Assembly (NCBI GenBank): GCA_014729085.1
Contig: WJKM01000004.1
Location: forward strand, 68,345 to 132,344
Source: Candidatus Dojkabacteria bacterium
GTDB taxonomy: Bacteria; Patescibacteriota; Dojkabacteria; B142; WJKM01
Length of the DNA: 64,000 bases
Direction: 5' to 3'
The position numbers and the translations under genes are program-made. The notes below the pieces were generated by a model. That model did no database searches. It worked only from the letters and a program-made list of their open reading frames with translations, and was not told the DNA's origin. This document shows, piece by piece, positions 1 to 13,305 of the stretch; the stretch's first letter is position 1, and the number at the start of each line of letters is the position of its first letter.

Positions 1-798
1 TAAAATAAAGACCATAAAGAATAGGAGGAATAACGCTAGAAAGGGTAATGCCAAAACTAAAAATGTTAGTATAGTAATTACCAATTTTAGTAAAAAAGTA
101 ATTAAAATTTCAGTAAAATTTTTAATAAAGTATCTCATGCCCTGATTTATTGAAGCAATGACCGATTGATCTTCTATGATCAACTTTCGTAAAGCAAAGG
201 GTTTAATACAACCTATAAAAATTGAGTACAAACCAAGAACCGCACATAATAAAATAACTATCAAACTTAGGATAATAGGGAAGCTACTTTCATCAAAAGA
301 TATATCACGGTTTGTATAAAAAATACTTATCATGCTTCCAAATATTATTAAAACTACAATAATAATCGGAAGAGCAAGTAGAACATTTTGCCCAAAAACC
401 TTTAACCAGTATTTATTTCCTAGATTCCAACTCTTCTTGAAATTAAGCTTTGAACCGTTAGTTATTTTTTCTGTAGCTTTGACCAATCCACTTTTTGCTT
501 TGTTTTTTATATATATTGAGATTAGTATCCATATAATTAACAAACTAATGCAGATTGCTCCTATAACTATCCACAGTTCCTCTGGAATGGACTTAATACT
601 TTGAACAATTGGGTCTAATTGTTGAGTCGCCTGGTCGAATCCATGTTCGACTTTACCTGGAAAATCAGATGATGAATCAAAGTCATTTCGAAAATTTGAA
701 CCACCACTGAAAAATGCAACAATCATCCCTAACAACCAAAGATATTTATGCTCCCACCAGAGCTTTACTGAATCTTTTAGGTTTTGTATATAATCCAT
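1..798 (-). CDS. hypothetical polytopic membrane protein, 5'-partial in window (the ORF runs off the window start)
   Basis: Reverse-strand reading frame is open from ATG (revcomp of 796-798) down to position 1 with no stop. Translation MDYIQNLKDSVKLWWEHKYLWLLGMIVAFF... contains several hydrophobic TM-like segments. It is absent from the ORF track only because there is no stop inside the window. The + ORF at 332-604 lies antisense to it. Confidence 0.45.
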   Translation of the reverse strand, partial: MDYIQNLKDSVKLWWEHKYLWLLGMIVAFFSGGSNFRNDFDSSSDFPGKVEHGFDQATQQLDPIVQSIKSIPEELWIVIGAICISLLIIWILISIYIKNKAKSGLVKATEKITNGSKLNFKKSWNLGNKYWLKVFGQNVLLALPIIIVVLIIFGSMISIFYTNRDISFDESSFPIILSLIVILLCAVLGLYSIFIGCIKPFALRKLIIEDQSVIASINQGMRYFIKNFTEILITFLLKLVITILTFLVLALPFLALFLLFFMVFIL

Positions 799-832: not shown

Positions 833-2911
833 TTATAGAATTAAATCTCTTGACTGGAGTAAATAAATATCGCGATCTTTATTGATTGTCCATTCAACAT
901 CCTGAAGAGAATCAAAATTATCTTCTAACTTTGTATACATTGCAAACAATGCTCTTATTTCAACTTCAGATAAATTTATTTTTTCCTTTTTTCCTTCATC
1001 TAAAATTATTTTTTGAAGGAATTTATCTATTATAATCTTTCGGACTTCACCAGTTCCATCAACGACCTCAGATGCATAACCTTTCGTAGCCTCGATAACT
1101 ACCTGATCTCTTGTCTTCGTCTCAATGTTACCTCCAAAAATTACTCCTGAATATTTAGGCTTAATCATTTCTTGAATTACAACTGCCATCCTTATTGTTT
1201 TTATATCTAAACTTTTTGAGATTTGTTTTACATGGCTCGTTTTAGCAGATTTCCATACCTCAATAATTTTTTCTTTAAGCTTATCTTTTTTCACATTTAG
1301 ATAACTATCAAACTGTCCTGCAAAGGCGTTATTTTCATTATCCTCTACGTTAGCACTTGATCTAACTGCATATTTTTTAGCTGAGTCAAGTTCATCCAGC
1401 ATAGATTGGAACTCATCAGATTTAAAAAATTTCTTTTTATTCATTTTGTTTGATTTTATAACAAATCCTTGTGGTACGTTGTATCCAACTTCTATTAATT
1501 GACCAAGTCTAAATGCCTTACCTCCTACCTGTTCCACTGACTCAAGCGAAGCGCTATCAAGCCTGATTATATTTTCATCCTCTTTGATTCCGGTAAAAAT
1601 ACGAATTTTCGATTTTTCAGATGTTATTCTTACGTACTGACCATCCTTAAATTTCTTAGTCCCTACGACAAAGGCTCTATGCCCTGAATCTGTAAGTACT
1701 CTCATAGCATGAGCCGTTGCTGATGTTCCGGGATACAATATATTTAAATTTTCTCTAATTGAAGCCACCGAATTTAAAGTACCATAGTCCCTTGTTTTTA
1801 CAATATTATTAGAGATATATAAGATCTGACTCTTCTTCTTGGTAATTTTTGATATGTCTTCAGGCCCGTCAACTACTAATATCCTTCCCCTAATATTAAT
1901 ATCTATATCATTTTCTTCTTCCAACTCATAATCAATCACTTCGTTAAAAAATAATGATTCACCATCTGAGGAAAATTCAATTCTCTTAGGAAAGTCTGCA
2001 TATTTTGTACATTTATTACATACAAGCGCAGCCTCTAAGATTTCAAAGTCAGATAAAACTTGTTCAAACTGATGATGTATTGGAACTCTTATTTTCTGAT
2101 CTTGAGAGGTCTCTGTAGTACAAATAGCATAAAACTTCTGCGGTATTATCTTGTCTATTATTATCATTCTTTTTATATCAACTGTATATTCATCATAACC
2201 TTCTAAAGATTGAACACCTTCATGATTTCCATATACTGCTAAAACAGTAATGATATTTCCATGAATGTCTTTTGGTACAGCATAACCTCCTCTTGGAAAT
2301 ATCACATTATCCTTTATAGGAAATTTCAGCATTGGGGGATCTGTAAAAGGATAAAAAAAAGCCTCAATTTTACTTTTTGGCTTAAGATGATATTCTTGTT
2401 CAATTGCAAAATCATAAATTCCCTCTAGTGCTTTTAAGGCATCTTTAAATTCCTTAATATCCAGAAATCTAGGACCCGGAGGATTTTCAATCCCCGGAAC
2501 TACGTATGCCCTTCTAAATGCTAGTAGACCGGTTTTCGAGTTAGATAATAAAGATTTTACATTATTTTTTAAAGTTTCTAAAAAACTAGTTGCTAATTTC
2601 CCAGTTTTCTCATAAACTCTGAATTCTTCATCGGTAATAACCCTTGTTTCTTCTGATTTGGCAAATTCGAATTTCAAATCAGGTCTAATAGATTCAAGAA
2701 TTCTAATTCCATCAATACGTGGATTTGATGATTTATATTCGCTTGGCTTTAATATGGACATATGGAATAATGAATTACATCTTTCTGTATTATACAAAAT
2801 GAATAATAAATAGCAAGAATCATATACCTTATATATCTGAAAGATATACCGCCTGGAATTCATTTCTGAAATCAACTTATTTAATTCTATGTTTGAAAGT
2901 AATGAGATCAA
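833..2911 (-). CDS. PEP-utilizing / pyruvate-water-dikinase-like phosphotransferase, domain-permuted
   Basis: The C-terminal ~240 aa match the PPDK_N ATP-binding domain motifs (VGGKAFRLGQL, VPQGFVI, AVRSSANVED..AFAGQFDSYLNV, MAVVIQEM, SGVIFGG, VIEATKGYASEVVDG). Residues ~395-425 resemble the PEP-utilizer His-swivel motif (PGTSATAHAMRVLTDSGHRAFVVGT, compare GGRTSHAAIVAREL-GIPAVVG). The N-terminal ~380 aa are unassigned. An alternative start is the ATG at 2762 (MSILKPSEY...), which would remove the overlap with the divergent gene at 2889. Confidence 0.5.
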   Translation of the reverse strand: MISLLSNIELNKLISEMNSRRYIFQIYKVYDSCYLLFILYNTERCNSLFHMSILKPSEYKSSNPRIDGIRILESIRPDLKFEFAKSEETRVITDEEFRVYEKTGKLATSFLETLKNNVKSLLSNSKTGLLAFRRAYVVPGIENPPGPRFLDIKEFKDALKALEGIYDFAIEQEYHLKPKSKIEAFFYPFTDPPMLKFPIKDNVIFPRGGYAVPKDIHGNIITVLAVYGNHEGVQSLEGYDEYTVDIKRMIIIDKIIPQKFYAICTTETSQDQKIRVPIHHQFEQVLSDFEILEAALVCNKCTKYADFPKRIEFSSDGESLFFNEVIDYELEEENDIDINIRGRILVVDGPEDISKITKKKSQILYISNNIVKTRDYGTLNSVASIRENLNILYPGTSATAHAMRVLTDSGHRAFVVGTKKFKDGQYVRITSEKSKIRIFTGIKEDENIIRLDSASLESVEQVGGKAFRLGQLIEVGYNVPQGFVIKSNKMNKKKFFKSDEFQSMLDELDSAKKYAVRSSANVEDNENNAFAGQFDSYLNVKKDKLKEKIIEVWKSAKTSHVKQISKSLDIKTIRMAVVIQEMIKPKYSGVIFGGNIETKTRDQVVIEATKGYASEVVDGTGEVRKIIIDKFLQKIILDEGKKEKINLSEVEIRALFAMYTKLEDNFDSLQDVEWTINKDRDIYLLQSRDLIL

Positions 2912-3644
2912 CTTAATAATTTCTGGATGGTTGGGAAGCGGATCTACTGTTACTTCACTTATATTAGCCTATCTCCTTCAAAAAAAATTTATTTATGCAG
3001 GTGCAACTTCTAGATTTATCGCACAAAGATTGGGATATGATACTTCTTCAGAGAGTTTTACAAAATATGAAAAAGAATTCGGCGAACAATTTGATTTAAT
3101 TTGGGAAAAATATATTCTTTGGAAAATTCAAGACCAAAAAAATATTTTAGTTAACAGTAAAATTACAGGCTTTTTCATTGACGACCCTGCATGGCTTTTC
3201 AAGGCTTATATAATTTCAGATCTAGAAGTAAGACAAGATAGAGCAGAAAAAGATAATAGAAAAGAAAAGCTCCAAAATCGCGAATCTCAACTTGAATATA
3301 GATGGAAAGAAATATTTAATATTGATTATAAAAATATTGAAGAAATTAGAGAAAACTATGATTTCTTAATAGATAATACCAATCTGACCATTTCCGAAAC
3401 TGTATTCAAAATATATTCAGCTTTAAGAAAGGCGCTTGGTTTGCAAGATATCTTTCTTCTAAGTGATATTCAGAAAATAGAAACGATATTGGAAAAGAAG
3501 GGAAAAATATATTTAATAAATAAACTTAAGGCTAACGAATTATTTATGGACCCTAAATCTATTATTGATGAATGGAAAAACAATTTTGATGAAGTGCTTA
3601 ATCAACTAGATCCTGAATGGGTTAAAATTGTAAACAGCATCTAG
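2889..3644 (+). CDS. P-loop nucleotide/nucleoside kinase-like protein (cytidylate-kinase-like fold)
   Basis: N-terminal glycine-rich P-loop-like segment ISGWLGSGSTVTS in a 251-aa soluble protein. This is weak motif-level evidence only. Confidence 0.35.
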   Translation: MFESNEINLIISGWLGSGSTVTSLILAYLLQKKFIYAGATSRFIAQRLGYDTSSESFTKYEKEFGEQFDLIWEKYILWKIQDQKNILVNSKITGFFIDDPAWLFKAYIISDLEVRQDRAEKDNRKEKLQNRESQLEYRWKEIFNIDYKNIEEIRENYDFLIDNTNLTISETVFKIYSALRKALGLQDIFLLSDIQKIETILEKKGKIYLINKLKANELFMDPKSIIDEWKNNFDEVLNQLDPEWVKIVNSI

Positions 3645-3897: not shown

Positions 3898-6800
3898 ATG
3901 TCAAAGAAAAAACTCTTTACAGGAATACTTAGCGTATTTTTTCTAATATTGACAATTCCATTTGGAATTATCCTCATTAAGGCAGCTGGTATTCCTTACC
4001 ATAACACTTATTTTATCAATTCAACACCTCAAGACTACGGCTCTGATCAAGTAAATTGCGCTGAATATACTAATCTCGAATATGTAAGACCTATTTGGAG
4101 TGATGTAGAACCAACTGTTCCAAGACGCAGATTTAGGTACGGACTTCAAATCAACGTCCCAGCTGACGGACAGGGATTCATCGACTATACAGTTGGAGCA
4201 CCATATAGATATCCAGCAGACAGCCCTTGGATACAGTTTACAAATGAAGGACAGTACAGAACCAGAGTAAGAACAGAAGAAAATGTAGATACCTCAGATC
4301 CTGATTACGAAGAAGTAAGTGCATGGAGCTCACCTGTATGCAATATTTATTACGACATTACCTCACCTTTAGTAACTATAACAAACCCTGTTCAATCTCC
4401 AACTAACGCACTAAATAGTGATATTTCGTATGATATTGACAACGAAACTTTAGAATCAATTGAGAGACTCAGAATTAGATTAACTGGAGATATGGACCAT
4501 ACATTATTTAATAGTAATAATACTGATGAATGGGGATTAACAGATCCTGCAAATTTAATTGGAACTTTAAATCTAGATCTTTGTGATTACAACCCAATAA
4601 ATGAAATGTGTAATATTCAAGAAGGAGAATATACCCTAAGAGTCATTGCTCTTGATAAAGCAGGAAATGAAAGGGGACTAGCAACTCAAACCTTAAAAAT
4701 TGATCGGCAAGCTCCACAGGTAACTAGAAATTTTTCAGATTACCCATTGCATTACAACCCAACAACCGGAAATTTTGTCTTTAGATTTACAGCTAACGAT
4801 ACAGGAAGAGGTGAATCAAGAATTACTGGAGCAACAGCTGTCGATTGGAATGACGAAACTACACCTCTAGGTACTATCACATTTGATAGCCCACTTGATT
4901 CACATATTGAAACCTTTGTTTGGGATCCAACAGGACTTGCAGATGGATTCTACACAATTAAACTATGTGCAAGTGATGAAGCTGGAAACAATGGAGAAGT
5001 TGATTACGATGAATGCGAAGTACTAGACATATATATAGATACTACAGCTCCAACTGACCTAAACTGGGGAGATGCTTGGGAGTATGCAGCTAATAATGGA
5101 ATAACTCTATATACAAAACAAGATGACAATATTAGAGTAAATTGGGAATATGCCGGACAGGATGTAGTAAGATATACTTATTACACAAATTATCCAGATT
5201 TCCCACCTTTTGCTGCTGAGACAAGAGAATGTTCAGATCTTCCATTTAAGGAAAGTTCTACTGCAAACTTAACTGATGAATATGGAAACAGCAAATGTAC
5301 TGTTAATGGAAATAGTGTACCTGTTAATCAGTACGAACAATATCTTTCAAGAACTGGAAACCATACTTTTGAAGTGACCGTAAAAGACCTAGCAGGAAAC
5401 GAGAATCCAAATGTATTAAATGGTTTAACCATATATCATGATCCACAAGATCCAATGATTAGTTACCTCTATAGCAATGTGCAGAATAGTACTACGAATG
5501 GAGTATTTGATGTAACAGTAAATTCGGAAGATAATGAAAGTGGAGTAAAACTAATAAATATACAAATAGAATCAATTAGTACAGGTGTAACAGTATTTGA
5601 TCAATCATACGATAATCCGAATGGACATGAAACAGATTATTCACTTACTGAAACAATGGATGTTGCTAATTGGGACGGTCAAATAGATGATGGTTTTTAT
5701 CAACTTTGTACCTATACAGAGGACCATGCAGATGACTTAATATCTGATCATATGTTCTCAGGAGATGGCGATACTGTTGAAAATGAACAAGTAGGTAATC
5801 AAAGCACACAACAATGTTTTGCTTTTTATCTAGATATAACTGGTCCTGAATCTTATGCTGAACTAGTTGAAGGTTATATAGATGAACCTGAAGATGATCA
5901 AGATGTTGGTAGTCTAAGAGTTGAAAACCAGGGATGGTTTAATGTCGATGAATTCTTTATTGACCCAAGAGAAGGTACAAGAGGATTTAACTGGCATGAA
6001 GATTACACTAAATTCCAAATAAGAGTTGACGACTATACAACAGGAGGATCGGTTTACTACAAAATTATTGAAAATATTACTGATCCAGAAGTAGCATGTG
6101 GAGATACAGGATATACAAATACAAACAACGATAAAGTATTGTTTACATGGGACTGGGAATATGCACAGCAACACCCCGAATACCATCTAGTATTTGAACC
6201 AGAATTTATGCGAACTGAAAATATGCATAAATTATGTTACTTCGCTGAAGATGAAGCAGGAAATCGAGAATATAAAACTAATTACGAGATATTCAAAGTA
6301 GATGATACGCCTCCTGATATTTCTGTAACACCAAATGCAGATGACCAAGAGGACAACAACGGGGAAGTAGTATATGTATTCGATGAAAGTCCAGCTCAAT
6401 TTTCAACTGGATTAACAGATCAAGGAGGTAATACAATAGCTGGTGTAAGAAAATTGTATTACGACGTATACTCACTTTACTCTGTAAACGATGAATGCAG
6501 ATATTCACAGAACAAAATAGTTGACTCGGAGACTGTATACCCAGATGACAGGCAGGAACCAAAAGACTGGGCTGCACCAACTAGTGTAAACGACACAGTT
6601 TCTGTTGATTTACAAGAAGGTTATTACTGTATAAAATTTGAATCCAGAGATGATGCTAGAAATAAATCCGAAGTTAGATGGTTCAAATTACTTATTGATC
6701 CGGATGACTTAGCACCAGTAATCACCGCTATGACACCTGAACTTTCATCTACAAGTACAGTAATCAGACCAGGAGATGAATTTGAATTTGATACAACTGA

Positions 6801-8250
6801 TACAGATAGAGGAGATAATGATGTTGTTTCCTTTGAAATAACACCAAGTATTGGAAATGTTTCGGCTAACGGACAGGAAGCTCCAGATAGAACATTTACA
6901 TGGACAGTATCTGATGCTGATCTTGGTACATACTCAAACGTAAGATTTTGTGCAAGAGATGCTAGAGATAATATTGGAATACCACCAGATTCAACAGACA
7001 TTCCAACAGGGGACTATCCTTACAATCAAACTCCTGGAGAAGAATGCTATGTAATATCTGAATTAGAAATTACTGACGACAATGAGGCGCCAATTATTAC
7101 TACTCAGATTAATCAAGCTTTTCAAAACGTACTCAATGGTGACCCTGTTGAAGAAGATGTAAACTATACATTTGTTGTAGACGATTCCACAAGAGGAAAT
7201 AATGACATTGCAAGAGTAACTATTGAATCAACATTTGCAAATCTTAGATTCATCAACGCAGGTGATGCATTGGATTCTCCAACAGAAGAAGTTGCCTGGT
7301 ATGTTCCAGATGGAGCTCTAGAAAACGTAGATCCAGGCACATACTCAATCAGGCTATGTGGAGAAGATGTACTTGGAAATGCTGGAGATGGAAATGATAC
7401 ACAACTTCCAACTGGAGACCCTGACACCGATGTAGAGTGCTTCTTATTTGATATAGTAGTACCAGAAGAGACTCAGTGTACACTGGTTCTTGTCGGTGGT
7501 GAATGGGTATGCGAAGAACAATTGACACGTAGTACCAGATATACACATATGAGAAATCATACACAGAATGATGTTCCTTATGAATGGATAGACCCAAACT
7601 GGAATGATAATTGGATGGATGCATATGTAATAGCGGAAAACAAGGAAGATGGTGAATGGAGATCATGTAACTTTATTCCAGACGGAGGAACAGCACCAAG
7701 TTATTGCTACAATCAGGATTCTGTATACAAATTCTTCAATAAAAACTTTGCTCAAATAATATCGGCTAGACCAAGTGTAAATACAGCAAGTATGACTAGA
7801 GACTTCTTCAGACAGCAATTTAACCTTGTTGAAGGAAAACAAGTAGCAAGTGCAAAACTATATTTTACAGGAGATAATGTAACAAAATTCTGGATAGATG
7901 GAAATCCAATTGCCGCGAATCAAAATGGGAATCTTACAAACGAAGGAGTTTGTGATGGTTCGGCACAAGGTAATGGACATTACGGAGGAAGTATAAATAT
8001 GATAGATGTAACCGATAAACTAAATCAGAATTTATCTACACATCTGATTGCCGGAAACATTTTGAATACAAGACCTTGTGGAAGCAACCATCCTCACGGT
8101 GTTCAGTTCTACCTTTGGATACAATACACTGATGGAACGATTCATCCAGGTTCTACAAATCCTGTGAACCCTGGTGGCGGATATTCAGGTCAACAATATG
8201 TCATCCAGAAAGGATATGGAACTGAATTTGGAACTAATCTTTATCTCTAG
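3898..8250 (+). CDS. giant secreted/surface protein with multiple Ig-like (Big-type) repeat domains, putative adhesin
   Basis: 1450 aa with an N-terminal signal/TM segment (LFTGILSVFFLILTIPFGIILI). At least seven recurrences of an Ig-like domain motif ending in D-x-AGN-x (RVIALDKAGNE, CASDEAGNNGE, TVKDLAGNEN, CYFAEDEAGNRE, ESRDDARNKSE, CARDARDNIG, CGEDVLGNAGDG). Rich in T/D/N/Y. Confidence 0.6.
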   Translation: MSKKKLFTGILSVFFLILTIPFGIILIKAAGIPYHNTYFINSTPQDYGSDQVNCAEYTNLEYVRPIWSDVEPTVPRRRFRYGLQINVPADGQGFIDYTVGAPYRYPADSPWIQFTNEGQYRTRVRTEENVDTSDPDYEEVSAWSSPVCNIYYDITSPLVTITNPVQSPTNALNSDISYDIDNETLESIERLRIRLTGDMDHTLFNSNNTDEWGLTDPANLIGTLNLDLCDYNPINEMCNIQEGEYTLRVIALDKAGNERGLATQTLKIDRQAPQVTRNFSDYPLHYNPTTGNFVFRFTANDTGRGESRITGATAVDWNDETTPLGTITFDSPLDSHIETFVWDPTGLADGFYTIKLCASDEAGNNGEVDYDECEVLDIYIDTTAPTDLNWGDAWEYAANNGITLYTKQDDNIRVNWEYAGQDVVRYTYYTNYPDFPPFAAETRECSDLPFKESSTANLTDEYGNSKCTVNGNSVPVNQYEQYLSRTGNHTFEVTVKDLAGNENPNVLNGLTIYHDPQDPMISYLYSNVQNSTTNGVFDVTVNSEDNESGVKLINIQIESISTGVTVFDQSYDNPNGHETDYSLTETMDVANWDGQIDDGFYQLCTYTEDHADDLISDHMFSGDGDTVENEQVGNQSTQQCFAFYLDITGPESYAELVEGYIDEPEDDQDVGSLRVENQGWFNVDEFFIDPREGTRGFNWHEDYTKFQIRVDDYTTGGSVYYKIIENITDPEVACGDTGYTNTNNDKVLFTWDWEYAQQHPEYHLVFEPEFMRTENMHKLCYFAEDEAGNREYKTNYEIFKVDDTPPDISVTPNADDQEDNNGEVVYVFDESPAQFSTGLTDQGGNTIAGVRKLYYDVYSLYSVNDECRYSQNKIVDSETVYPDDRQEPKDWAAPTSVNDTVSVDLQEGYYCIKFESRDDARNKSEVRWFKLLIDPDDLAPVITAMTPELSSTSTVIRPGDEFEFDTTDTDRGDNDVVSFEITPSIGNVSANGQEAPDRTFTWTVSDADLGTYSNVRFCARDARDNIGIPPDSTDIPTGDYPYNQTPGEECYVISELEITDDNEAPIITTQINQAFQNVLNGDPVEEDVNYTFVVDDSTRGNNDIARVTIESTFANLRFINAGDALDSPTEEVAWYVPDGALENVDPGTYSIRLCGEDVLGNAGDGNDTQLPTGDPDTDVECFLFDIVVPEETQCTLVLVGGEWVCEEQLTRSTRYTHMRNHTQNDVPYEWIDPNWNDNWMDAYVIAENKEDGEWRSCNFIPDGGTAPSYCYNQDSVYKFFNKNFAQIISARPSVNTASMTRDFFRQQFNLVEGKQVASAKLYFTGDNVTKFWIDGNPIAANQNGNLTNEGVCDGSAQGNGHYGGSINMIDVTDKLNQNLSTHLIAGNILNTRPCGSNHPHGVQFYLWIQYTDGTIHPGSTNPVNPGGGYSGQQYVIQKGYGTEFGTNLYL

Positions 8251-8342: not shown

Positions 8343-9095
8343 TTAAACACCTAATGATTTTTTGATATATGCAGCAAAACGCTCCATAACAATTTCCGTC
8401 CTTTCATTATTCTTAAGTCCCGGTCTAGATCTAATAAACTGACTCAATTCATGTAGTTTGATAATCAACTCACCCATATATATATCATCTATTTTATTAA
8501 TCAGTTTCGAATAATTTCCCCAATTATAAAGCAATGTACGGTCTTTCAGTAATTTTTTATTTTTAATCTTATTATTCCAATTTTTAGCATCTTGTAATTT
8601 TTGCATGAATTTACTAATAAAATTTAATCTCTTATTAACTTGTTGAACAATATAGTCAACATCTAAAGTACCTGGACAACTAGTAGGCGAATCACTAATT
8701 TCCTTATGTAACCAGGCATTCACACCTCTTTTAAGGGTAAATCCGTGTTTTACGCATAGGTTAACACAAAGTTCAATACTAGTTTCATGACATGTGGTTG
8801 TAGGTTTTTTACGTTTTCCATCTTTTAATTGTCCACCCGCATGTTCAATTCCAATATACCTAATATTTGCAGAAGAATTACCTGCATGCCACGCAATATA
8901 TTCATCTTGTACATATTGATGAACCGCTCCTCTTGAACCGACACCATAATGAGCTGATGCTTTCCTATCTGGATCTTTAAAAGTTCTATCAGCACTGCTT
9001 AACTCGCCAACAATCCAATGAAAAACTATACCTTGTTTAGTTGATTTTGTCTTTGAATAATTATTTGGATCGGCAGGTACTTGTCTAATATTCAT
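8343..9095 (-). CDS. N-acetylmuramoyl-L-alanine amidase (Amidase_2/PGRP family) with C-terminal extension
   Basis: Motifs typical of Amidase_2/T7-lysozyme-like zinc amidases: HWIVGE, ASAHYGV, YIAWHAGN, IGIEHAG, and C..CPG near the domain end. The C-terminal ~100 aa are of unknown function. Confidence 0.7.
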   Translation of the reverse strand: MNIRQVPADPNNYSKTKSTKQGIVFHWIVGELSSADRTFKDPDRKASAHYGVGSRGAVHQYVQDEYIAWHAGNSSANIRYIGIEHAGGQLKDGKRKKPTTTCHETSIELCVNLCVKHGFTLKRGVNAWLHKEISDSPTSCPGTLDVDYIVQQVNKRLNFISKFMQKLQDAKNWNNKIKNKKLLKDRTLLYNWGNYSKLINKIDDIYMGELIIKLHELSQFIRSRPGLKNNERTEIVMERFAAYIKKSLGV

Positions 9096-9222: not shown

Positions 9223-9822
9223 ATGTTAAAAACCAAATTGTTAGTTTTAAAAGAAAATTTTGACTTTTATAAATGCATCTCATTTATATTTAATCCTATA
9301 TTTCTTGCATTTACTCTCTTTATTATTCTAGTATCTGAATACAACATAAGAACAAAACATATAGCAATCATCAGTTTCATACAAATTATTATTCCACTCT
9401 CATATTTTTTATACAGCCTAATCAAAAAAAAGATTGATTTTGATCTGACAGAAAGACAAAAAAGATTACCTTTTATGTTAGCGACATTAGGCACCAGTTT
9501 AATTTCTTCATATTTTTTACTTCAATGGAAATACTATAAAATCCTAAATATAACATTTCCTGTTATCATAATAATCGCAATCGCCTTACTAATAACATTT
9601 AAATGGAAAATCAGCCTACATTCCCTTACTAATACTATTTTTTTAATCGTATTAGGAAAATATTTTGATAAATATATCTACTTAGCAATACCTTTTGTAA
9701 TTCCTCTTATTTCAATATCAAGATATAAGCTCAAAAAACATACCATTGCACAATTAATTGCGGGTGTCTTACTAGGTTTTTCATATTTAATAATTAATTA
9801 TTATATCTACTTTAAATCCTAA
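9223..9822 (+). CDS. PAP2-like (type 2 phosphatidic acid phosphatase family) integral membrane protein
   Basis: Six hydrophobic segments. SLHS and SRYKLKKHTIAQ resemble PAP2 motifs 2 and 3 (PSGH, SRxxxxxHxxxD). Its stop overlaps the start of the next gene (TAATG at 9820-9824). Confidence 0.4.
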   Translation: MLKTKLLVLKENFDFYKCISFIFNPIFLAFTLFIILVSEYNIRTKHIAIISFIQIIIPLSYFLYSLIKKKIDFDLTERQKRLPFMLATLGTSLISSYFLLQWKYYKILNITFPVIIIIAIALLITFKWKISLHSLTNTIFLIVLGKYFDKYIYLAIPFVIPLISISRYKLKKHTIAQLIAGVLLGFSYLIINYYIYFKS

Positions 9823-11360
9823 TGAAGAACAAACTGCCTCTGTTCAATTATGCAATTCTTTTCTTGTTCATCTTCATTTTCCAGATTTTTACTCTTACTA
9901 ATAGTTATGCTCAAATATTTAACGATATCTCTTCAGATTACGAATTTTATAACTACATTGAAGACCTTAAACAAAGAAATATAATTGACGGGTATACAGA
10001 TGGAACTTTCAGACCAAATAACAAGCTAACACGCGGAGAACTTTCAAAAATAGTTACAAATGCATTTAGTCTAAAAGCAGACTCTAAAAGTAATAACTTC
10101 CTTGATTTAGAGGAAACAGATACATTCTACGACTATATTATAACTCTTAACCAATTAGGGATAATAAATGGATATTCAGATGGCACCTTTAGAAGTTATG
10201 AGAAAGTTACCAGAGGACAAGCCATGAAATTCATCGTTAATTCGGTGAAACTTAGCGATAACGAAAAGTTTGTAGAGGTACCTCAGTGGACTATCTTTCC
10301 AGATGTTGATGAATCTAATACTTTCTTCAACTATATCAATTCAGCTACTTCTATTAAATTAAATGACGGAACGCGAATTATTAAAGGTTACTCAACAGGG
10401 GAATTTGGAGTCAATAATAACATTACAAGGGCCGAAATTTCTAAGGTCATAAGTCAAACTTTGAATTATTATGAGAATGGAGGTACATTTGAACCCCCGC
10501 TCACATATCAAGAAGCTAATAATGAACTTGCTGGCGTTGACGAAAATAATGAAATACTTGCAATTTATTCTATAAAGACAGACTCAACAATTACAATAAT
10601 TAGAGAATATGAAAAAACTGATCTACAAGTTAACGAACAAATGTGGGGCATAATTACCAATGTAATTCCGGAAAACAGAATTCAAAACCTATCAAAATTT
10701 AACCTATTTACGGATGGCGAAAAAGAATCATTAGCTGGAATTTATCGAGATGCCTACAATTTGGAAAATTTCAATTTTATGATTGATTATTTAGATATAT
10801 ACCAAAATTCAACTATTAATGAAACTCTATTAGAATATGCAACTATACATGAATTAGGGCATATTATAAGTTTAAATAGTGAACAGATAACTATTACAAA
10901 AAGTTTATATACTGCTAAAACTATAGAAGAAATGGAAGAAATGAAGGGTATTGCAGAATTACTTTGCACAAACTACTATGCATTTGATGGCTGTAGTAAA
11001 GATAACTCATATATTAATTCATTTGTAAACACCTTTTGGACTGAAGAACAACTTAATAGGTTAGAAGAAATTTACAATGCAGATACTGACGAAGAGCAAA
11101 ATCAATTACTAAATGATTTTTACTGGGATTATGAAAACGACTTTGTTACTCTATATGCCTTATCTGCCCCAACTGAGGACTTTGCAGAAAGTTTTACACA
11201 CTTTATTACACATGAGAGACCTGAAGATACAACTTTCATCAAAGATCAGAAAACCGAATTTTTCTATAGCTTTCCCGAACTCGTTGATTTACGAAATGAT
11301 ATCAGAATACACATTTCTGAGGATACTAAAAATGTTGACATCCAATCTTATCTTCTATAA
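9822..11360 (+). CDS. S-layer-homology (SLH) domain protein with C-terminal HExxH zinc-metallopeptidase-like domain
   Basis: Signal peptide, then three SLH repeats (F.D....FY.YI..L....II.GY.DGTFRPNNKLTRGELSKIV; ...GYSDGTFRSYEKVTRGQAMKFIV; ...GYSTGEFGVNNNITRAEISKVI). The C-terminal region has HELGH. Confidence 0.65.
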   Translation: MKNKLPLFNYAILFLFIFIFQIFTLTNSYAQIFNDISSDYEFYNYIEDLKQRNIIDGYTDGTFRPNNKLTRGELSKIVTNAFSLKADSKSNNFLDLEETDTFYDYIITLNQLGIINGYSDGTFRSYEKVTRGQAMKFIVNSVKLSDNEKFVEVPQWTIFPDVDESNTFFNYINSATSIKLNDGTRIIKGYSTGEFGVNNNITRAEISKVISQTLNYYENGGTFEPPLTYQEANNELAGVDENNEILAIYSIKTDSTITIIREYEKTDLQVNEQMWGIITNVIPENRIQNLSKFNLFTDGEKESLAGIYRDAYNLENFNFMIDYLDIYQNSTINETLLEYATIHELGHIISLNSEQITITKSLYTAKTIEEMEEMKGIAELLCTNYYAFDGCSKDNSYINSFVNTFWTEEQLNRLEEIYNADTDEEQNQLLNDFYWDYENDFVTLYALSAPTEDFAESFTHFITHERPEDTTFIKDQKTEFFYSFPELVDLRNDIRIHISEDTKNVDIQSYLL

Positions 11361-12080: not shown

Positions 12081-12416
12081 ATGAAATCAAAAAATGAACT
12101 TAAGCTGCCTCCAAAAGCTACATTAAAAGATTACCAGAAATATGTTATGGACTTAGAAAAAAGAAGGGGTTTCTTGCAACAAACAGCTATAGAAAAATGT
12201 TTAATGCTTGGTGAAGAAGTTGGAGAACTTTTTAAAGCTGTTAGAAAAAAAGAAGGGTTAAAAGTCGATAAAAAAAATTCAAAATTTAAAGACATTCCTG
12301 GAGAACTTGCTGATATTTTTATCTTTATTCTCTCCATCTCAAATAAATTCGATATTGATTTGGAAAAAGCATTTATCAATAAGGAAGCAATAAATAAGAA
12401 AAGAATATGGAACTAA
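12081..12416 (+). CDS. MazG-like nucleotide pyrophosphohydrolase
   Basis: 111 aa. EEVGELFKAVRKKEG ... ELADIFIFILSISNKFDIDLEKA matches the MazG/NTP-PPase EExxE..E..D helical motif pair. Confidence 0.6.
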   Translation: MKSKNELKLPPKATLKDYQKYVMDLEKRRGFLQQTAIEKCLMLGEEVGELFKAVRKKEGLKVDKKNSKFKDIPGELADIFIFILSISNKFDIDLEKAFINKEAINKKRIWN

Positions 12417-12435
12417 CTTTATAATCATATTTATT

Positions 12436-12813
12436 ATGAAAAAACCATCTTTTACTACAATAATTAATCAAATTATTGAATTTAATGATAAACGAGGTTG
12501 GGATCCAGAACCAGTTGACTCTGCTAAGTCCATAGTAATTGAATCAGCTGAGCTTCTTGAACATTTTCAGTGGGATGCAACTGACCAACGTAAAGACGAG
12601 AAGAAAGACTGGACTGATATTGAGTTAGAAGTTGCAGATGTTTTCTGGTATTTACTTACATTTTGCCATAAAACCAATATAGATCCTCTTGGAGCTATAC
12701 AAAATAAAATTAAATATAATGAAGAGAAATATCCAGAAGATCATTTCAATGGAAAACACAATCAAAAATTTTATAAACAGAGAAAAATGGAATATAGAAA
12801 CAAAAATAAATAA
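12436..12813 (+). CDS. MazG-like nucleotide pyrophosphohydrolase (second paralog)
   Basis: 125 aa. ESAELLEHFQW ... ELEVADVFWYLLTFCHKTNIDP matches the MazG/dCTPase-like motif pair. Confidence 0.55.
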   Translation: MKKPSFTTIINQIIEFNDKRGWDPEPVDSAKSIVIESAELLEHFQWDATDQRKDEKKDWTDIELEVADVFWYLLTFCHKTNIDPLGAIQNKIKYNEEKYPEDHFNGKHNQKFYKQRKMEYRNKNK

Positions 12814-12828
12814 TTTTCTTAACTTATT

Positions 12829-13305
12829 ATGAGAGACGCAACTCTTTGTTTTCTTGTAAAAGAATCAAATAATAAAATTATACAAATTTGCTTAGCTAAA
12901 AAGAAAAGGGGATTTGGTACTGATAAATGGAATGGCGCTGGAGGAAAAGTAATGAACGAAACAATAGAAGAGGCAATGATAAGAGAAACGATAGAAGAAA
13001 TTGACGTTGTACCCTTGGAATACGTAAAAGTTGCAGAACTAACTTTTCAATTTAAGGAAAATCCAGCATTTAATCAAAAAGTCTATAGTTACTTAGCAAC
13101 TTCCTGGAAAGGGAATCCCTCAGAAAGTGATGAAATGAAACCAAGATGGTTTGAAGTAGATGAAATTCCTTACTATAGCATGTGGGATGACGACAAACAC
13201 TGGTTACCACTTGTTCTTAATAAAAAGAAACTTACAGGCAAATTCCTTTTTAACCAAAAGAATAAGATTATAGATCACAAAATTAACGTAGTAAACAAAT
13301 TTTAA
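12829..13305 (+). CDS. NUDIX hydrolase
   Basis: Nudix box GGKVMNETIEEAMIRETIEEID (G-x5-E-x7-REuxEExGu). Confidence 0.7.
   Translation: MRDATLCFLVKESNNKIIQICLAKKKRGFGTDKWNGAGGKVMNETIEEAMIRETIEEIDVVPLEYVKVAELTFQFKENPAFNQKVYSYLATSWKGNPSESDEMKPRWFEVDEIPYYSMWDDDKHWLPLVLNKKKLTGKFLFNQKNKIIDHKINVVNKF

Follow-up and report, generated by a model that had tools for sequence, protein, structure and literature searches.

A predicted phosphohistidine-swivel dikinase of Candidatus Dojkabacteria with a putative second, diverged ATP-grasp domain

The locus and its reading frame

The window, a stretch of 64,000 nucleotides of DNA from Candidatus Dojkabacteria, a tiny uncultured member of the Patescibacteria, carries on its minus strand an open reading frame that in its maximal form begins with TTG and comprises 692 codons (833..2911), next to a divergently transcribed gene for a (d)CMP-kinase-like P-loop protein (Table 1). 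In the homolog search, GenBank GF362_00735 was a 100 % match to P0001. The true start of GF362_00735 is probably M51 of the maximal frame, giving a protein of 642 aa, since the M51-equivalent position is the start in the ten closest homologs and the best promoter-like site on the minus strand (TTGCTA-16-TATAAT, 2816..2789) lies within the extended ORF. Starting at M51 also abolishes the overlap of the ORF with the divergent gene. Residues are numbered here with M51 as 1, so that H351 of the 642-aa protein is H401 of the 692-aa frame. Decay of an RHH domain was considered as the origin of the 50 codons ahead of M51 and rejected, as the RHH profile scored 0.2 bits against them and 129 of 2000 shuffles scored as high. 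The AF2 model of the 642-aa protein had a pLDDT of 89.1 and a pTM of 0.82.

Table 1. Features of the locus, with positions in the window.
Feature	Position	Strand	Basis or remark
Probable true gene, 642 aa (GenBank GF362_00735, Candidatus Dojkabacteria)	833..2761	-	ATG at 2761 (M51), stop 833..835
Canonical PPDK_N ATP-grasp domain, residues 396-642, presumed ATP site	836..1576	-	Pfam, alignment to RPH-Lm
Diverged phosphohistidine swivel (PEP-utilizers-like) domain, residues 286-395, predicted	1577..1906	-	hhalign, P0182, AF2 secondary structure
His motif YPGTSATAHAMRVLTDSGH, residues 393-411 of the 692-aa frame	1679..1735	-	Translation
Codon of predicted phospho-carrier H351	1709..1711	-	Translation, conservation
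N′ domain, residues 1-285, predicted cryptic diverged PPDK_N-type ATP-grasp, presumed acceptor-binding	1907..2761	-	hhalign, Foldseek
50 codons upstream of M51 in maximal ORF	2762..2911	-	Probably 5′ untranslated/promoter region, outside the protein
(d)CMP-kinase-like P-loop gene, divergently transcribed	2889..3644	+	TIGR02173 E 1.5e-13, below cutoff; weak AAA_18 match

The swivel domain and the two ATP-grasp domains

The C-terminal part of the protein is matched by Pfam PF01326 (PPDK_N) over residues ~445-690 of the 692-aa frame (E 5.4e-46). When aligned to RPH-Lm (5fbs/5hv6), residues K415, R467, S/T486, E623, Q636 and R638 fall on K22, R117, T136, E297, Q309 and R311, respectively, and none of the six varies among 61 homologs, apart from S or T at the T136 position. 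The roles of the ATP-site residues K22, R117, T136 and E297 have been described for RPH-Lm (PMC4844700), and the C-terminal domain is presumed to be the ATP site of the window protein.

Upstream of this domain, where the preliminary description of this DNA had placed a His-swivel, lies the motif YPGTSATAHAMRVLTDSGH, a variant of the canonical GGxT(S/C)HAAIxARExG with two additional residues ahead of the His. It departs from the T/SxxGGxxxH motif of PF00391, reading YPGTSATAH without the GG and with the same two additional residues, and a Pfam scan of the whole 692-aa protein with PF00391 gave zero matches even at E<=10. The PEP-utilizers match that had been expected ahead of PPDK_N thus did not appear, and taken at face value the scan counts against a swivel, but the assignment itself stood up to stronger tests. 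His351 is invariant in 61/61 homologs, and the core family profile aligned by hhalign with real PF00391 domains (E 8.5e-4) with H351 on the catalytic His; the E-value was 1.3e-5 after split relatives were added and 2.5e-7 after the further addition of two Pfam-positive bridging members, again with His on His. A remote relative, P0182, exceeds the Pfam PF00391 cutoff (28.6 vs 23.1 bits) and aligns in a single stretch to positions 90-451 of the PEP-synthase model, and the motif can be followed through relatives from PGGITSH (P0108) over YPGNVRTSH (P0107) and YPGTATTAH (P0097) to the YPGTSATAH of the window protein. In the AF2 model, residues 288-390 follow the swivel fold element by element in the order of their secondary structure, and the His stands at the N-terminal end of a helix. 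On this combined profile, structural and bridging-homolog evidence, which we let override the PF00391 miss, the central domain is judged to be a genuine, diverged swivel domain, and H351 is assumed to be competent for phosphotransfer despite the two-residue-longer loop before it.

The preliminary description had left a ~380-aa N-terminal region unassigned. This can be revised, as translation probably begins only after the first ~50 codons, and the ~285 aa that follow, here called N′, are predicted to form a cryptic, highly diverged PPDK_N-type ATP-grasp domain. Aligned by hhalign, N′ matched canonical PPDK_N over 214 columns (98.7 %, E 1.8e-16), the matches of the N+His profile fall inside canonical PPDK_N domains, and in split relatives N′ scores above the cutoff of Pfam PPDK_N. 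A Foldseek search with the N+His model, lacking the C-terminal domain, gave the ATP-grasps of RPH, HpeI, PEP synthase and PPDK as best matches (RPH ATP-grasp 5hv6, E 3e-12; PEP synthase 2ols, 469 columns; PPDK 1kbl, 583 columns). N′ and the C domain are conserved to the same degree (mean pairwise identity 0.47 vs 0.45). N′ carries the motifs NPRIDG, RRAYVVPG.ENPPGPRF, GN.EGVQS, IPQK, QFEQVLSD.EILE, R.EFS and FNE, and is invariant in 61/61 homologs at R84, Q184, D190, K204, K209, D238, R260, E262 and E274. In the alignment with canonical PPDK_N, R83 falls on R117, E262 on E297 and E274 on Q309, and R15 is paired with K22 by a motif series in relatives; the equivalent of R311 is lost, the adenine hinge VQEMV is replaced by a Pro-rich PFxDP, and NPRIDG, RRAYVVPG and FNE stand in place of GGKA, RSSA.ED and LQ.RP. 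N′ would thus retain the phosphate/Mg2+ ligand set with a remodelled adenine hinge. A recent internal duplication of the C domain was considered as its source and rejected, because N′ matches the C domain of its own protein weakly (E 1.7e-3), far less well than it matches canonical PPDK_N; the joining of a PEPS-like [ATP-grasp–His] module with a separate ATP-grasp gene is the likelier origin.

The layout of the protein is accordingly ATP-grasp′ – His – ATP-grasp. The term "permuted", which had been applied to it, holds insofar as an ATP-grasp follows the His, but residues 1-395 keep the canonical ATP-grasp to His order, after which the canonical ATP-grasp stands in the place of the TIM barrel. 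The [N′+His] and C-terminal ATP-grasp modules are separable: at locus L009, relatives carry a split operon in which an [N′+His] gene (P0070) is followed by a 282-aa PPDK_N gene with a 4-bp overlap, and P0107 is a fusion with the module order swapped. Throughout this family, a canonical ATP-grasp is always supplied beside N′+His, either in cis or by the adjacent gene. The arrangement of His before ATP-grasp as such is already known from glucan water dikinase. Bacterial proteins with a canonical PF00391, P0081 among them, likewise have an acceptor-side domain, then the His and then a C-terminal ATP-binding domain.

Relationship to known dikinases

The PPDK_N-type ATP-grasp with its conserved ATP/Mg site, and the swivel fold with a conserved His that is profile-homologous to PF00391, identify the protein, as judged by alignment and model, as a member of the PEPS/PPDK/RPH/GWD dikinase superfamily. 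This agrees with the superfamily placement in the preliminary description, for which the PF01326 match and the aligned RPH-Lm site residues speak. Its claim that a His-swivel domain lies upstream of a C-terminal PPDK_N domain was likewise confirmed. Neither the TIM barrel (PF02896) nor the RIF-binding domain (PF27448) has a Pfam match in the window protein.

RPH-Lm (PDB 5HV1/5FBS/5HV6) is the best structural and sequence match to both ATP-grasp domains, and RPH and the window protein share a three-part logic of ATP-grasp, acceptor domain and swivel His. In RPH the order is ATP-grasp – RIF-binding – His and the acceptor domain is the helical RIF-binding domain, whereas the window protein has a second ATP-grasp in that role and a His loop that is two residues longer and undetected by PF00391. 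True RPH-like matches contain PF27448, and the window protein reached 108 bits with the RPH model NF041857 against a cutoff of 999. The ATP-grasp and His two-thirds of PEPS/PPDK (2OLS, 1KBL) are collinear with residues 1-395 over 469-583 columns, and the swivel mechanism of these enzymes is likewise proposed here. The window protein nevertheless cannot be a PEP synthase, because the TIM barrel is missing and the chain ends with the ATP-grasp; the scores of the NCBIfam PEPS equivalogs are all far under cutoff (124 vs 598 bits).

In glucan water dikinase StGWD1, the His domain follows an acceptor-side central domain and precedes a C-terminal ATP-binding domain; the protein also has two CBM45 modules, and its central domain is all-alpha, with 20 helices (PMC13553574). 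Judged from this published description, GWD1 shares the linear order acceptor–His–ATP with the window protein; its His domain is likewise distant from PF00391-type domains and its ATP domain is RPH-like. The first domain, however, is all-alpha in GWD1 and an alpha/beta ATP-grasp here, so that only the domain order is common to both, and kinship of the N-terminal domain with GWD was rejected on this ground (PMC13553574). CBM45/CBM20 modules had no Pfam match in the window protein, and GWD1 is eukaryotic/plastidial whereas the family of the window protein occurs in bacteria of the candidate phyla radiation (CPR).

In the two-component dikinases HpeHI, PpsAB and CreHI, [acceptor-binding + swivel His] and [ATP-grasp] are encoded adjacently (PMC12167813; PDB 9GOJ). 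This is the split logic of P0070 and its 282-aa PPDK_N partner, and the window protein corresponds to a single-chain fusion in the gene order of that pair. HpeI was among its top structural matches, but the acceptor part of HpeH is helical, RIF-binding-domain-like and binds phenolics, whereas N′ is an ATP-grasp that has diverged and whose conserved site is charged. VadK (Rv1127c), an [ATP-grasp–His] protein derived from PPDK, has no acceptor barrel; it phosphorylates itself on His and functions as a regulator (PMC13400623). It resembles the N′+His module as a truncated derivative that lacks the TIM barrel yet is functional; its single ATP-grasp is the ATP site, whereas the family of the window protein combines a diverged N′ with a second, canonical ATP-grasp. 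In the open-access literature, we found no earlier account of a double-ATP-grasp or CPR dikinase.

Family distribution, proposed reaction and alternatives

The family was found in 16 of ~185,000 species genomes, all of CPR bacteria. Homologs of the (d)CMP-kinase-like neighbour lie immediately upstream of the family gene in L005 and L028, and such a neighbour is present in three loci, within the clade of the window protein only, making a functional link possible, if unproven. A NUDIX gene lies directly upstream in three loci and is again clade-limited, and Adk, RNR or NUDIX genes are near the family gene in other clades. Housekeeping neighbours occur in several clades (yqeY–X–ybeY–ftsAZ, secY–X–adk and recO…X–glyS, where X is the family gene), and all-vs-all ORF clustering of 26 loci revealed no operon partner common to several clades. 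Given these varied neighbourhoods and the rarity of the family, genomic context is almost no guide to the substrate. A PADLOC scan gave zero matches, and a role in anti-phage defence was rejected. An RHH/CopG-like N-terminal extension is present in 17/42 homologs (about 40 %), which hints at a regulatory, not purely metabolic, role; the window protein and its entire subclade are without it.

From the observed folds, domain order, site-residue conservation and module separability, we infer as follows how catalysis proceeds, in which direction the phosphate is transferred and what kind of acceptor is used. The protein is probably, in our estimate, a self-contained phosphohistidine-swivel phosphotransferase that cleaves ATP at the C domain, uses H351 as carrier and holds its acceptor in N′. 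MgATP would bind the canonical C-terminal ATP-grasp and His351 would attack the beta-phosphate with release of AMP, the gamma-phosphate passing to water (PEPS/RPH-type) or Pi. The phospho-His domain would then swivel toward N′, where the bound acceptor would take the phosphoryl group. N′ itself presumably goes back to the ATP-grasp in an [ATP-grasp–His] ancestor that resembled PEP synthase. Since N′ keeps the phosphate/Mg2+ ligands while R311 is gone and the hinge is remodelled, the acceptor is most likely a small anionic metabolite (phosphate- or carboxylate-bearing, possibly nucleotide-like) and not ATP itself. The lack of a conserved partner in 26 loci fits a self-contained enzyme, and GWD provides a working example of the order acceptor-domain – His – ATP-domain (PMC13553574).

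N′ could instead be regulatory or structural. The protein might then be a VadK-like autophosphorylating histidine kinase in which the reaction either stops at phospho-His351 or continues with transfer to a partner protein, and N′ is a regulatory or ligand-sensing pseudo-ATP-grasp; in the homologs bearing the RHH-like extension, phosphorylation or ligand state would govern DNA binding. VadK offers a precedent for such a PPDK-derived regulator without acceptor barrel (PMC13400623), and the extension in 17 of 42 homologs, the Pro-rich hinge and lost R311 equivalent of N′, and the absence of a conserved metabolic operon among the 26 loci are all in line with it. We nevertheless regard this reading as unlikely, as the extension is missing from the very subclade of the window protein, the 26 loci reveal no conserved adjacent partner protein, and the invariance of the Mg/phosphate ligand equivalents and of the new charged residues in N′ resembles an active site more than a sensor.

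Were both ATP-grasps active, the His could carry a phosphoryl (or pyrophosphoryl) group from one nucleotide to another, for example ATP + NMP/NDP -> AMP + NDP/NTP, in the service of salvage in nucleotide-auxotrophic CPR bacteria. The N′ equivalents of K22, R117, E297 and Q309 (R15, R83, E262 and E274) would suit such a reaction, as would the (d)CMP-kinase-like gene adjoining in three loci of the clade and the Adk, RNR or NUDIX genes nearby in other clades. The adenine hinge and R311 are gone from N′, however, and the nucleotide-gene neighbours vary between clades and are common in CPR genomes generally. To our knowledge, a swivel enzyme shuttling phosphate between two nucleotides has no precedent and would belong to an enzyme class that has not been described, and we give this possibility only a slim chance.

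It is similarly improbable that the protein is an RPH/HpeHI-like antibiotic or xenobiotic kinase, with N′ as a novel binding domain for small molecules, hydrophobic or hydroxylated, whose phosphorylation inactivates or traps them. The nearest structures and NCBIfam models are of RPH and PEPS type, and the family is sporadic and rare with a variable genomic context, as accessory or resistance genes typically are. On the other hand, the helical RIF-binding-type domain (PF27448) is absent, the charged invariant site of N′ (R, K, D, E) suits an anionic or Mg2+-bound ligand better than a hydrophobic drug, and in several clades the gene lies amid core housekeeping genes.

Finally, natural two-gene split versions in relatives and the overlap of the maximal ORF with the start of the neighbouring gene might suggest a frameshift or assembly fusion of two genes, or a decaying pseudogene, but the chance of such an artefact is close to nil: the overlap vanishes given the M51 start, purifying selection is similar across all three domains, and ~60 homologs from independent assemblies that are collinear and uninterrupted over their full length, together with an AF2 model that is confident throughout and has no segment below 50 pLDDT, exclude a frameshift fusion and uphold the single gene of the preliminary description.

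The window protein would thus represent an uncharacterised, CPR-restricted branch of the swivel-histidine dikinases in which the acceptor-side domain is itself a recycled ATP-grasp. Acceptor domains elsewhere are the TIM barrel in PEPS/PPDK, the helical RIF-binding domain in RPH/HpeH and the all-alpha central domain in GWD, and ATP-grasp′–His–ATP-grasp, which also occurs split and swapped, extends this modular repertoire. Should a nucleotide or another central metabolite prove to be the acceptor, the family would bear on the handling of phosphate-bond energy in ultra-small symbionts, and if the two-nucleotide shuttle were true, CPR bacteria would have in one protein an ATP:NMP/NDP phospho(pyrophospho)transferase for recharging salvaged nucleotides. 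Patescibacteria reconstructions that count members as pps/ppdK would be wrong, because without a TIM barrel no PEP is made. Pfam detects one of the three domains, and the family can provide seeds for widening PF01326 and PF00391 to very divergent members. In the databases, members are named 'PEP/pyruvate-binding domain protein' and even 'putative phosphoenolpyruvate synthase' (P0066).

Reading frame, C-terminal domain and central His domain

The minus-strand reading frame of the dikinase-like gene comprises 692 codons with TTG first. Its product matches, at 100 % identity, a hypothetical protein from a MAG of Candidatus Dojkabacteria (Patescibacteria/CPR), for which GenBank places the start at M17 (window 2863, 676 aa). 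Among homologs, the ten most similar (44-53 % identity) start exactly at the position equivalent to M51. The top sigma-70-like site of the minus strand (TTGCTA-16-TATAAT, 10/12) lies within the extended ORF and ends 28 nt 5' of ATG 2761, and once M51 is taken as the start, the gene no longer overlaps its divergent neighbour beginning at 2889. Judged from these sequence features, the true start is therefore probably ATG 2761 (M51; 642 aa), and the GenBank annotation probably carries 34 surplus codons at the 5' end. Residues are numbered from M51; adding 50 gives the numbering of the preliminary description.

Pfam recognised a single domain, PPDK_N, across the final ~245 residues (E 5.4e-46), as expected from the PPDK_N-like C-terminus noted before, and sub-threshold NCBIfam matches to PEP synthase, RPH and PigC/RedH models were all confined to this domain. 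No Pfam match to PF00391 (PEP-utilizers) was obtained in the protein, even at E<=10, a result that, read literally, speaks against a swivel domain upstream of PPDK_N. Such a domain had been proposed from a His-swivel-like motif, and comparison with relatives confirmed it. The first His of the motif YPGTSATAHAMRVLTDSGH (His351) is invariant in 61/61 full-length homologs, a set with a mean pairwise identity as low as ~45 %, and falls on the catalytic His when the central-region profile is aligned with a bona fide PF00391 profile. This alignment reached E 8.5e-4 for the core family, E 1.3e-5 over 85 columns with split relatives included, and E 2.5e-7 when two remote members were also included. 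Moreover, the motif is graded among relatives, from PGGITSH (P0108) through YPGNVRTSH (P0107) and YPGTATTAH (P0097) to YPGTSATAH in the window protein, and the remote member P0182 clears the Pfam PF00391 cutoff (28.6 vs 23.1 bits).

Features of the target gene and its surroundings (window coordinates)
Feature	Position	Strand	Remarks
Multi-pass membrane protein	1..798	-	DUF7544, E 2.4e-9; co-directional with target
Target gene, probable extent	833..2761	-	start at M51
Target gene, maximal reading frame	833..2911	-	
YPGTSATAHAMRVLTDSGH	1679..1735	-	
Codon of His351	1709..1711	-	
Promoter-like site	2816..2789	-	
(d)CMP-kinase-like P-loop gene	2889..3644	+	251 aa; TIGR02173 E 1.5e-13, below cutoff; ~80-aa C-terminal extension
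Secreted protein	3898..8250	+	1450 aa; bacterial Ig-like (Big_13/Big_3) repeats
Amidase_2 gene	8343..9095	-	N-acetylmuramoyl-L-alanine amidase
Protein with three SLH domains	9822..11360	+	weak zinc-metallopeptidase match
MazG, MazG-like, NUDIX	12081..13305	+	111, 125 and 158 aa; consecutive nucleotide-pyrophosphatase-type genes

A second ATP-grasp in the N-terminal region

While the placement of a His domain before a C-terminal ATP-grasp was upheld, the region preceding it, previously regarded as unassigned, is a second ATP-grasp (N′), on which five tests agree. The architecture is thus ATP-grasp′ – His – ATP-grasp. N′ carries the motifs RRAYVVPG, GN.EGVQS and R.EFS.D…FNE, resembling VRSSA.ED, GLGEGVVSG and DIEWAID…LQSR of PPDK_N, respectively, and its profile aligned by hhalign to canonical PPDK_N from PEPS/RPH-like proteins with 98.7 % probability (E 1.8e-16, 214 collinear columns). 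A profile restricted to residues 1-395, run against 1.84 billion representative proteins, matched, outside its own family, canonical proteins of PEPS/RPH type with E ~1e-8 to 1e-10 within their Pfam PPDK_N domains, and Pfam PPDK_N scored above cutoff on the N-type domain of the standalone relatives P0097, P0108, P0113, P0167 and P0182. When residues 1-395 were modelled on their own with AF2, without the C-terminal PPDK_N (pLDDT 90.3), the model best matched the RPH ATP-grasp (isolated domain 5hv6, E 3e-12, TM 0.59-0.65), with HpeI also among the best matches (ATP-grasp only), and aligned to PEP synthase 2ols over 469 columns and PPDK 1kbl over 583 columns, covering ATP-grasp and His domain in canonical order. 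Finally, P0182 gave one continuous alignment with a PEP-synthase model (positions 90-451). The first two-thirds of the protein is a diverged PEP-synthase-like N-terminus, followed by a canonical ATP-grasp where PEP synthase has its TIM barrel. N′ matched the protein's own C domain far more weakly (E 1.7e-3) than canonical PPDK_N, and a recent internal duplication was therefore rejected.

Residues were mapped by phmmer alignment to RPH-Lm, using the published mutational analysis of RPH, in which K22, R117 and T136 position polyphosphate and E297 binds Mg2+ (PMC4844700).

Equivalents of RPH-Lm residues, with conservation among 61 homologs
RPH-Lm	C domain	N′
K22	K415 (invariant)	R15, by motif series (60/61 R)
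R117	R467 (invariant)	R83 (58/61 R); adjacent R84 invariant
T136	S/T486	R98
E297	E623 (invariant)	E262 (invariant)
Q309	Q636 (invariant)	E274 (invariant)
R311	R638 (invariant)	lost (Ile)

In N′ the adenine hinge reads PFxDP in place of VQEMV, and D190, K204, K209, D238 and R260 are invariant charged residues specific to this domain. Since E262, E274 and these additional residues are invariant, and N′ shows no less conservation than the C domain (mean pairwise identity 0.47 vs 0.45), a decaying relic was rejected; from residue conservation, N′ is a selected site that probably handles Mg2+/phosphate and whose base pocket is remodelled.

The two modules are separable, as seen from their arrangement in relatives. 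In locus L009 (548..2535), N′ and the His domain are encoded by a 380-aa gene of their own (P0070; 33 % identity to residues 4-375 of the window protein, E 4e-50), which overlaps the next gene by 4 bp. This second gene encodes a 282-aa PPDK_N protein that shares 38 % identity with the window protein's C domain (E 1e-34) and retains RSS, QDIEW and LQSRP. P0107 is a swapped fusion with PPDK_N (22-239) preceding N′ and His (294-644). HpeHI, PpsAB and CreHI likewise divide acceptor-binding plus swivel and ATP-grasp between separate proteins (PMC12167813), a two-component logic shared with the L009-type split. At the P0060 locus (L008, 3604..5020, minus strand), a standalone gene of 107 aa with PF00391 only lies ~700 bp downstream from the family member, next to a 366-aa gene without Pfam match, and this pair may form a further split swivel-His system of that genome.

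Proposed mechanism and relation to known dikinases

The ATP-grasp and, as judged from profiles and structure, also the swivel domain place the protein in the dikinase superfamily; the latter trait is described for PPDK, RPH and GWD alike (PMC13553574). The protein lacks the third domain (PF02896) of PEPS/PPDK, the RIF-binding domain of RPH, and the CBM45 and all-alpha central domains of GWD. GWD1, ordered CBM45–CBM45–central–His–ATP (PMC13553574), shares the succession of His and ATP domains, which also occurs with a canonical swivel domain in the bacterial P0081 (846 aa; ~400 N-terminal residues without Pfam match, PF00391 430-500, PPDK_N 553-846), which resembles an HpeH–HpeI-type dikinase in fused form. 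Hence, a His domain ahead of an ATP-grasp has precedents. In the open-access literature no description was found of a second, diverged ATP-grasp as acceptor-side domain, and this use appears undescribed. The architecture is unusual for specialists of the superfamily.

We favour, with moderate confidence, a mechanism in which the canonical C-terminal ATP-grasp would cleave ATP and His351 would carry the beta-phosphate, the gamma-phosphate probably passing to water since the domain is of PEPS/RPH type; the His domain would then swivel to N′, where the acceptor would be phosphorylated. Folds, domain order, conserved residues and modularity are established by the analysis, and the catalysis, transfer direction and acceptor are inferred. 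An autophosphorylating, VadK-like regulator is an unlikely alternative with a precedent in VadK itself (PMC13400623), and it is supported by a ~45-aa N-terminal RHH/CopG-like extension in 17 of 42 aligned family members (~40 %), which fuses a DNA-binding fold to the enzyme. The extension (P0012-P0044; alignment A1, columns 45-100) has the consensus MIRSQILLT.EL…SQSEAVRKLL and matches RHH_1 in P0039 (E 8e-4); no significant RHH remnant was found in the window's 50 upstream codons (2762..2911). Less probable still, and to a similar degree, are an RPH/Hpe-like kinase of small molecules (drug or xenobiotic) and a shuttle between two nucleotide sites. An artefact, such as two genes fused by a frameshift, is refuted by ~60 collinear homologs and a model that is confident throughout, without any low-confidence segment.

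Distribution and gene neighbourhoods

The family is small and rare, with ~70 clusters at 90 % identity among 5.8 billion and 57 representatives at E<1e-30 in the representative library, and its members are mislabelled as PEP synthase, which gives it practical weight for CPR annotation. A pattern scan found it in only 16/185,579 species-representative genomes, all MAGs and essentially Patescibacteria, a few with improbable taxon labels. Several MAGs (L012, L014, L017, L019, L020, L023, L025) are titled 'uncultured Gammaproteobacteria', 'Bathyarchaeia' or 'Woesearchaeota'; their neighbour genes look bacterial/CPR-like, and the titles are therefore probably labelling or binning artefacts.

ORF clustering of 26 loci revealed no universally conserved partner gene, and neighbourhoods vary by clade (X, family member): yqeY–X–ybeY–ftsA–ftsZ (stops and starts overlapping), recO…X–glyS, secY–X–…–adk–map, and NUDIX–X. 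PADLOC gave no match. In three loci of the window's Dojkabacteria-type clade the (d)CMP-kinase-like gene adjoins the family member in two arrangements, divergent in the window and co-directional in L005 (5216..5947) and L028 (2972..3712), a weak hint of a role in nucleotide metabolism. The MazG, MazG-like and NUDIX genes, encoding house-cleaning or nucleotide-hydrolysing enzymes, lie ~10 kb from the target. The DUF7544 gene begins ~35 nt past the target stop and extends beyond the window edge, and the three genes for the secreted, Amidase_2 and SLH-domain proteins form a cell-surface/envelope cluster.
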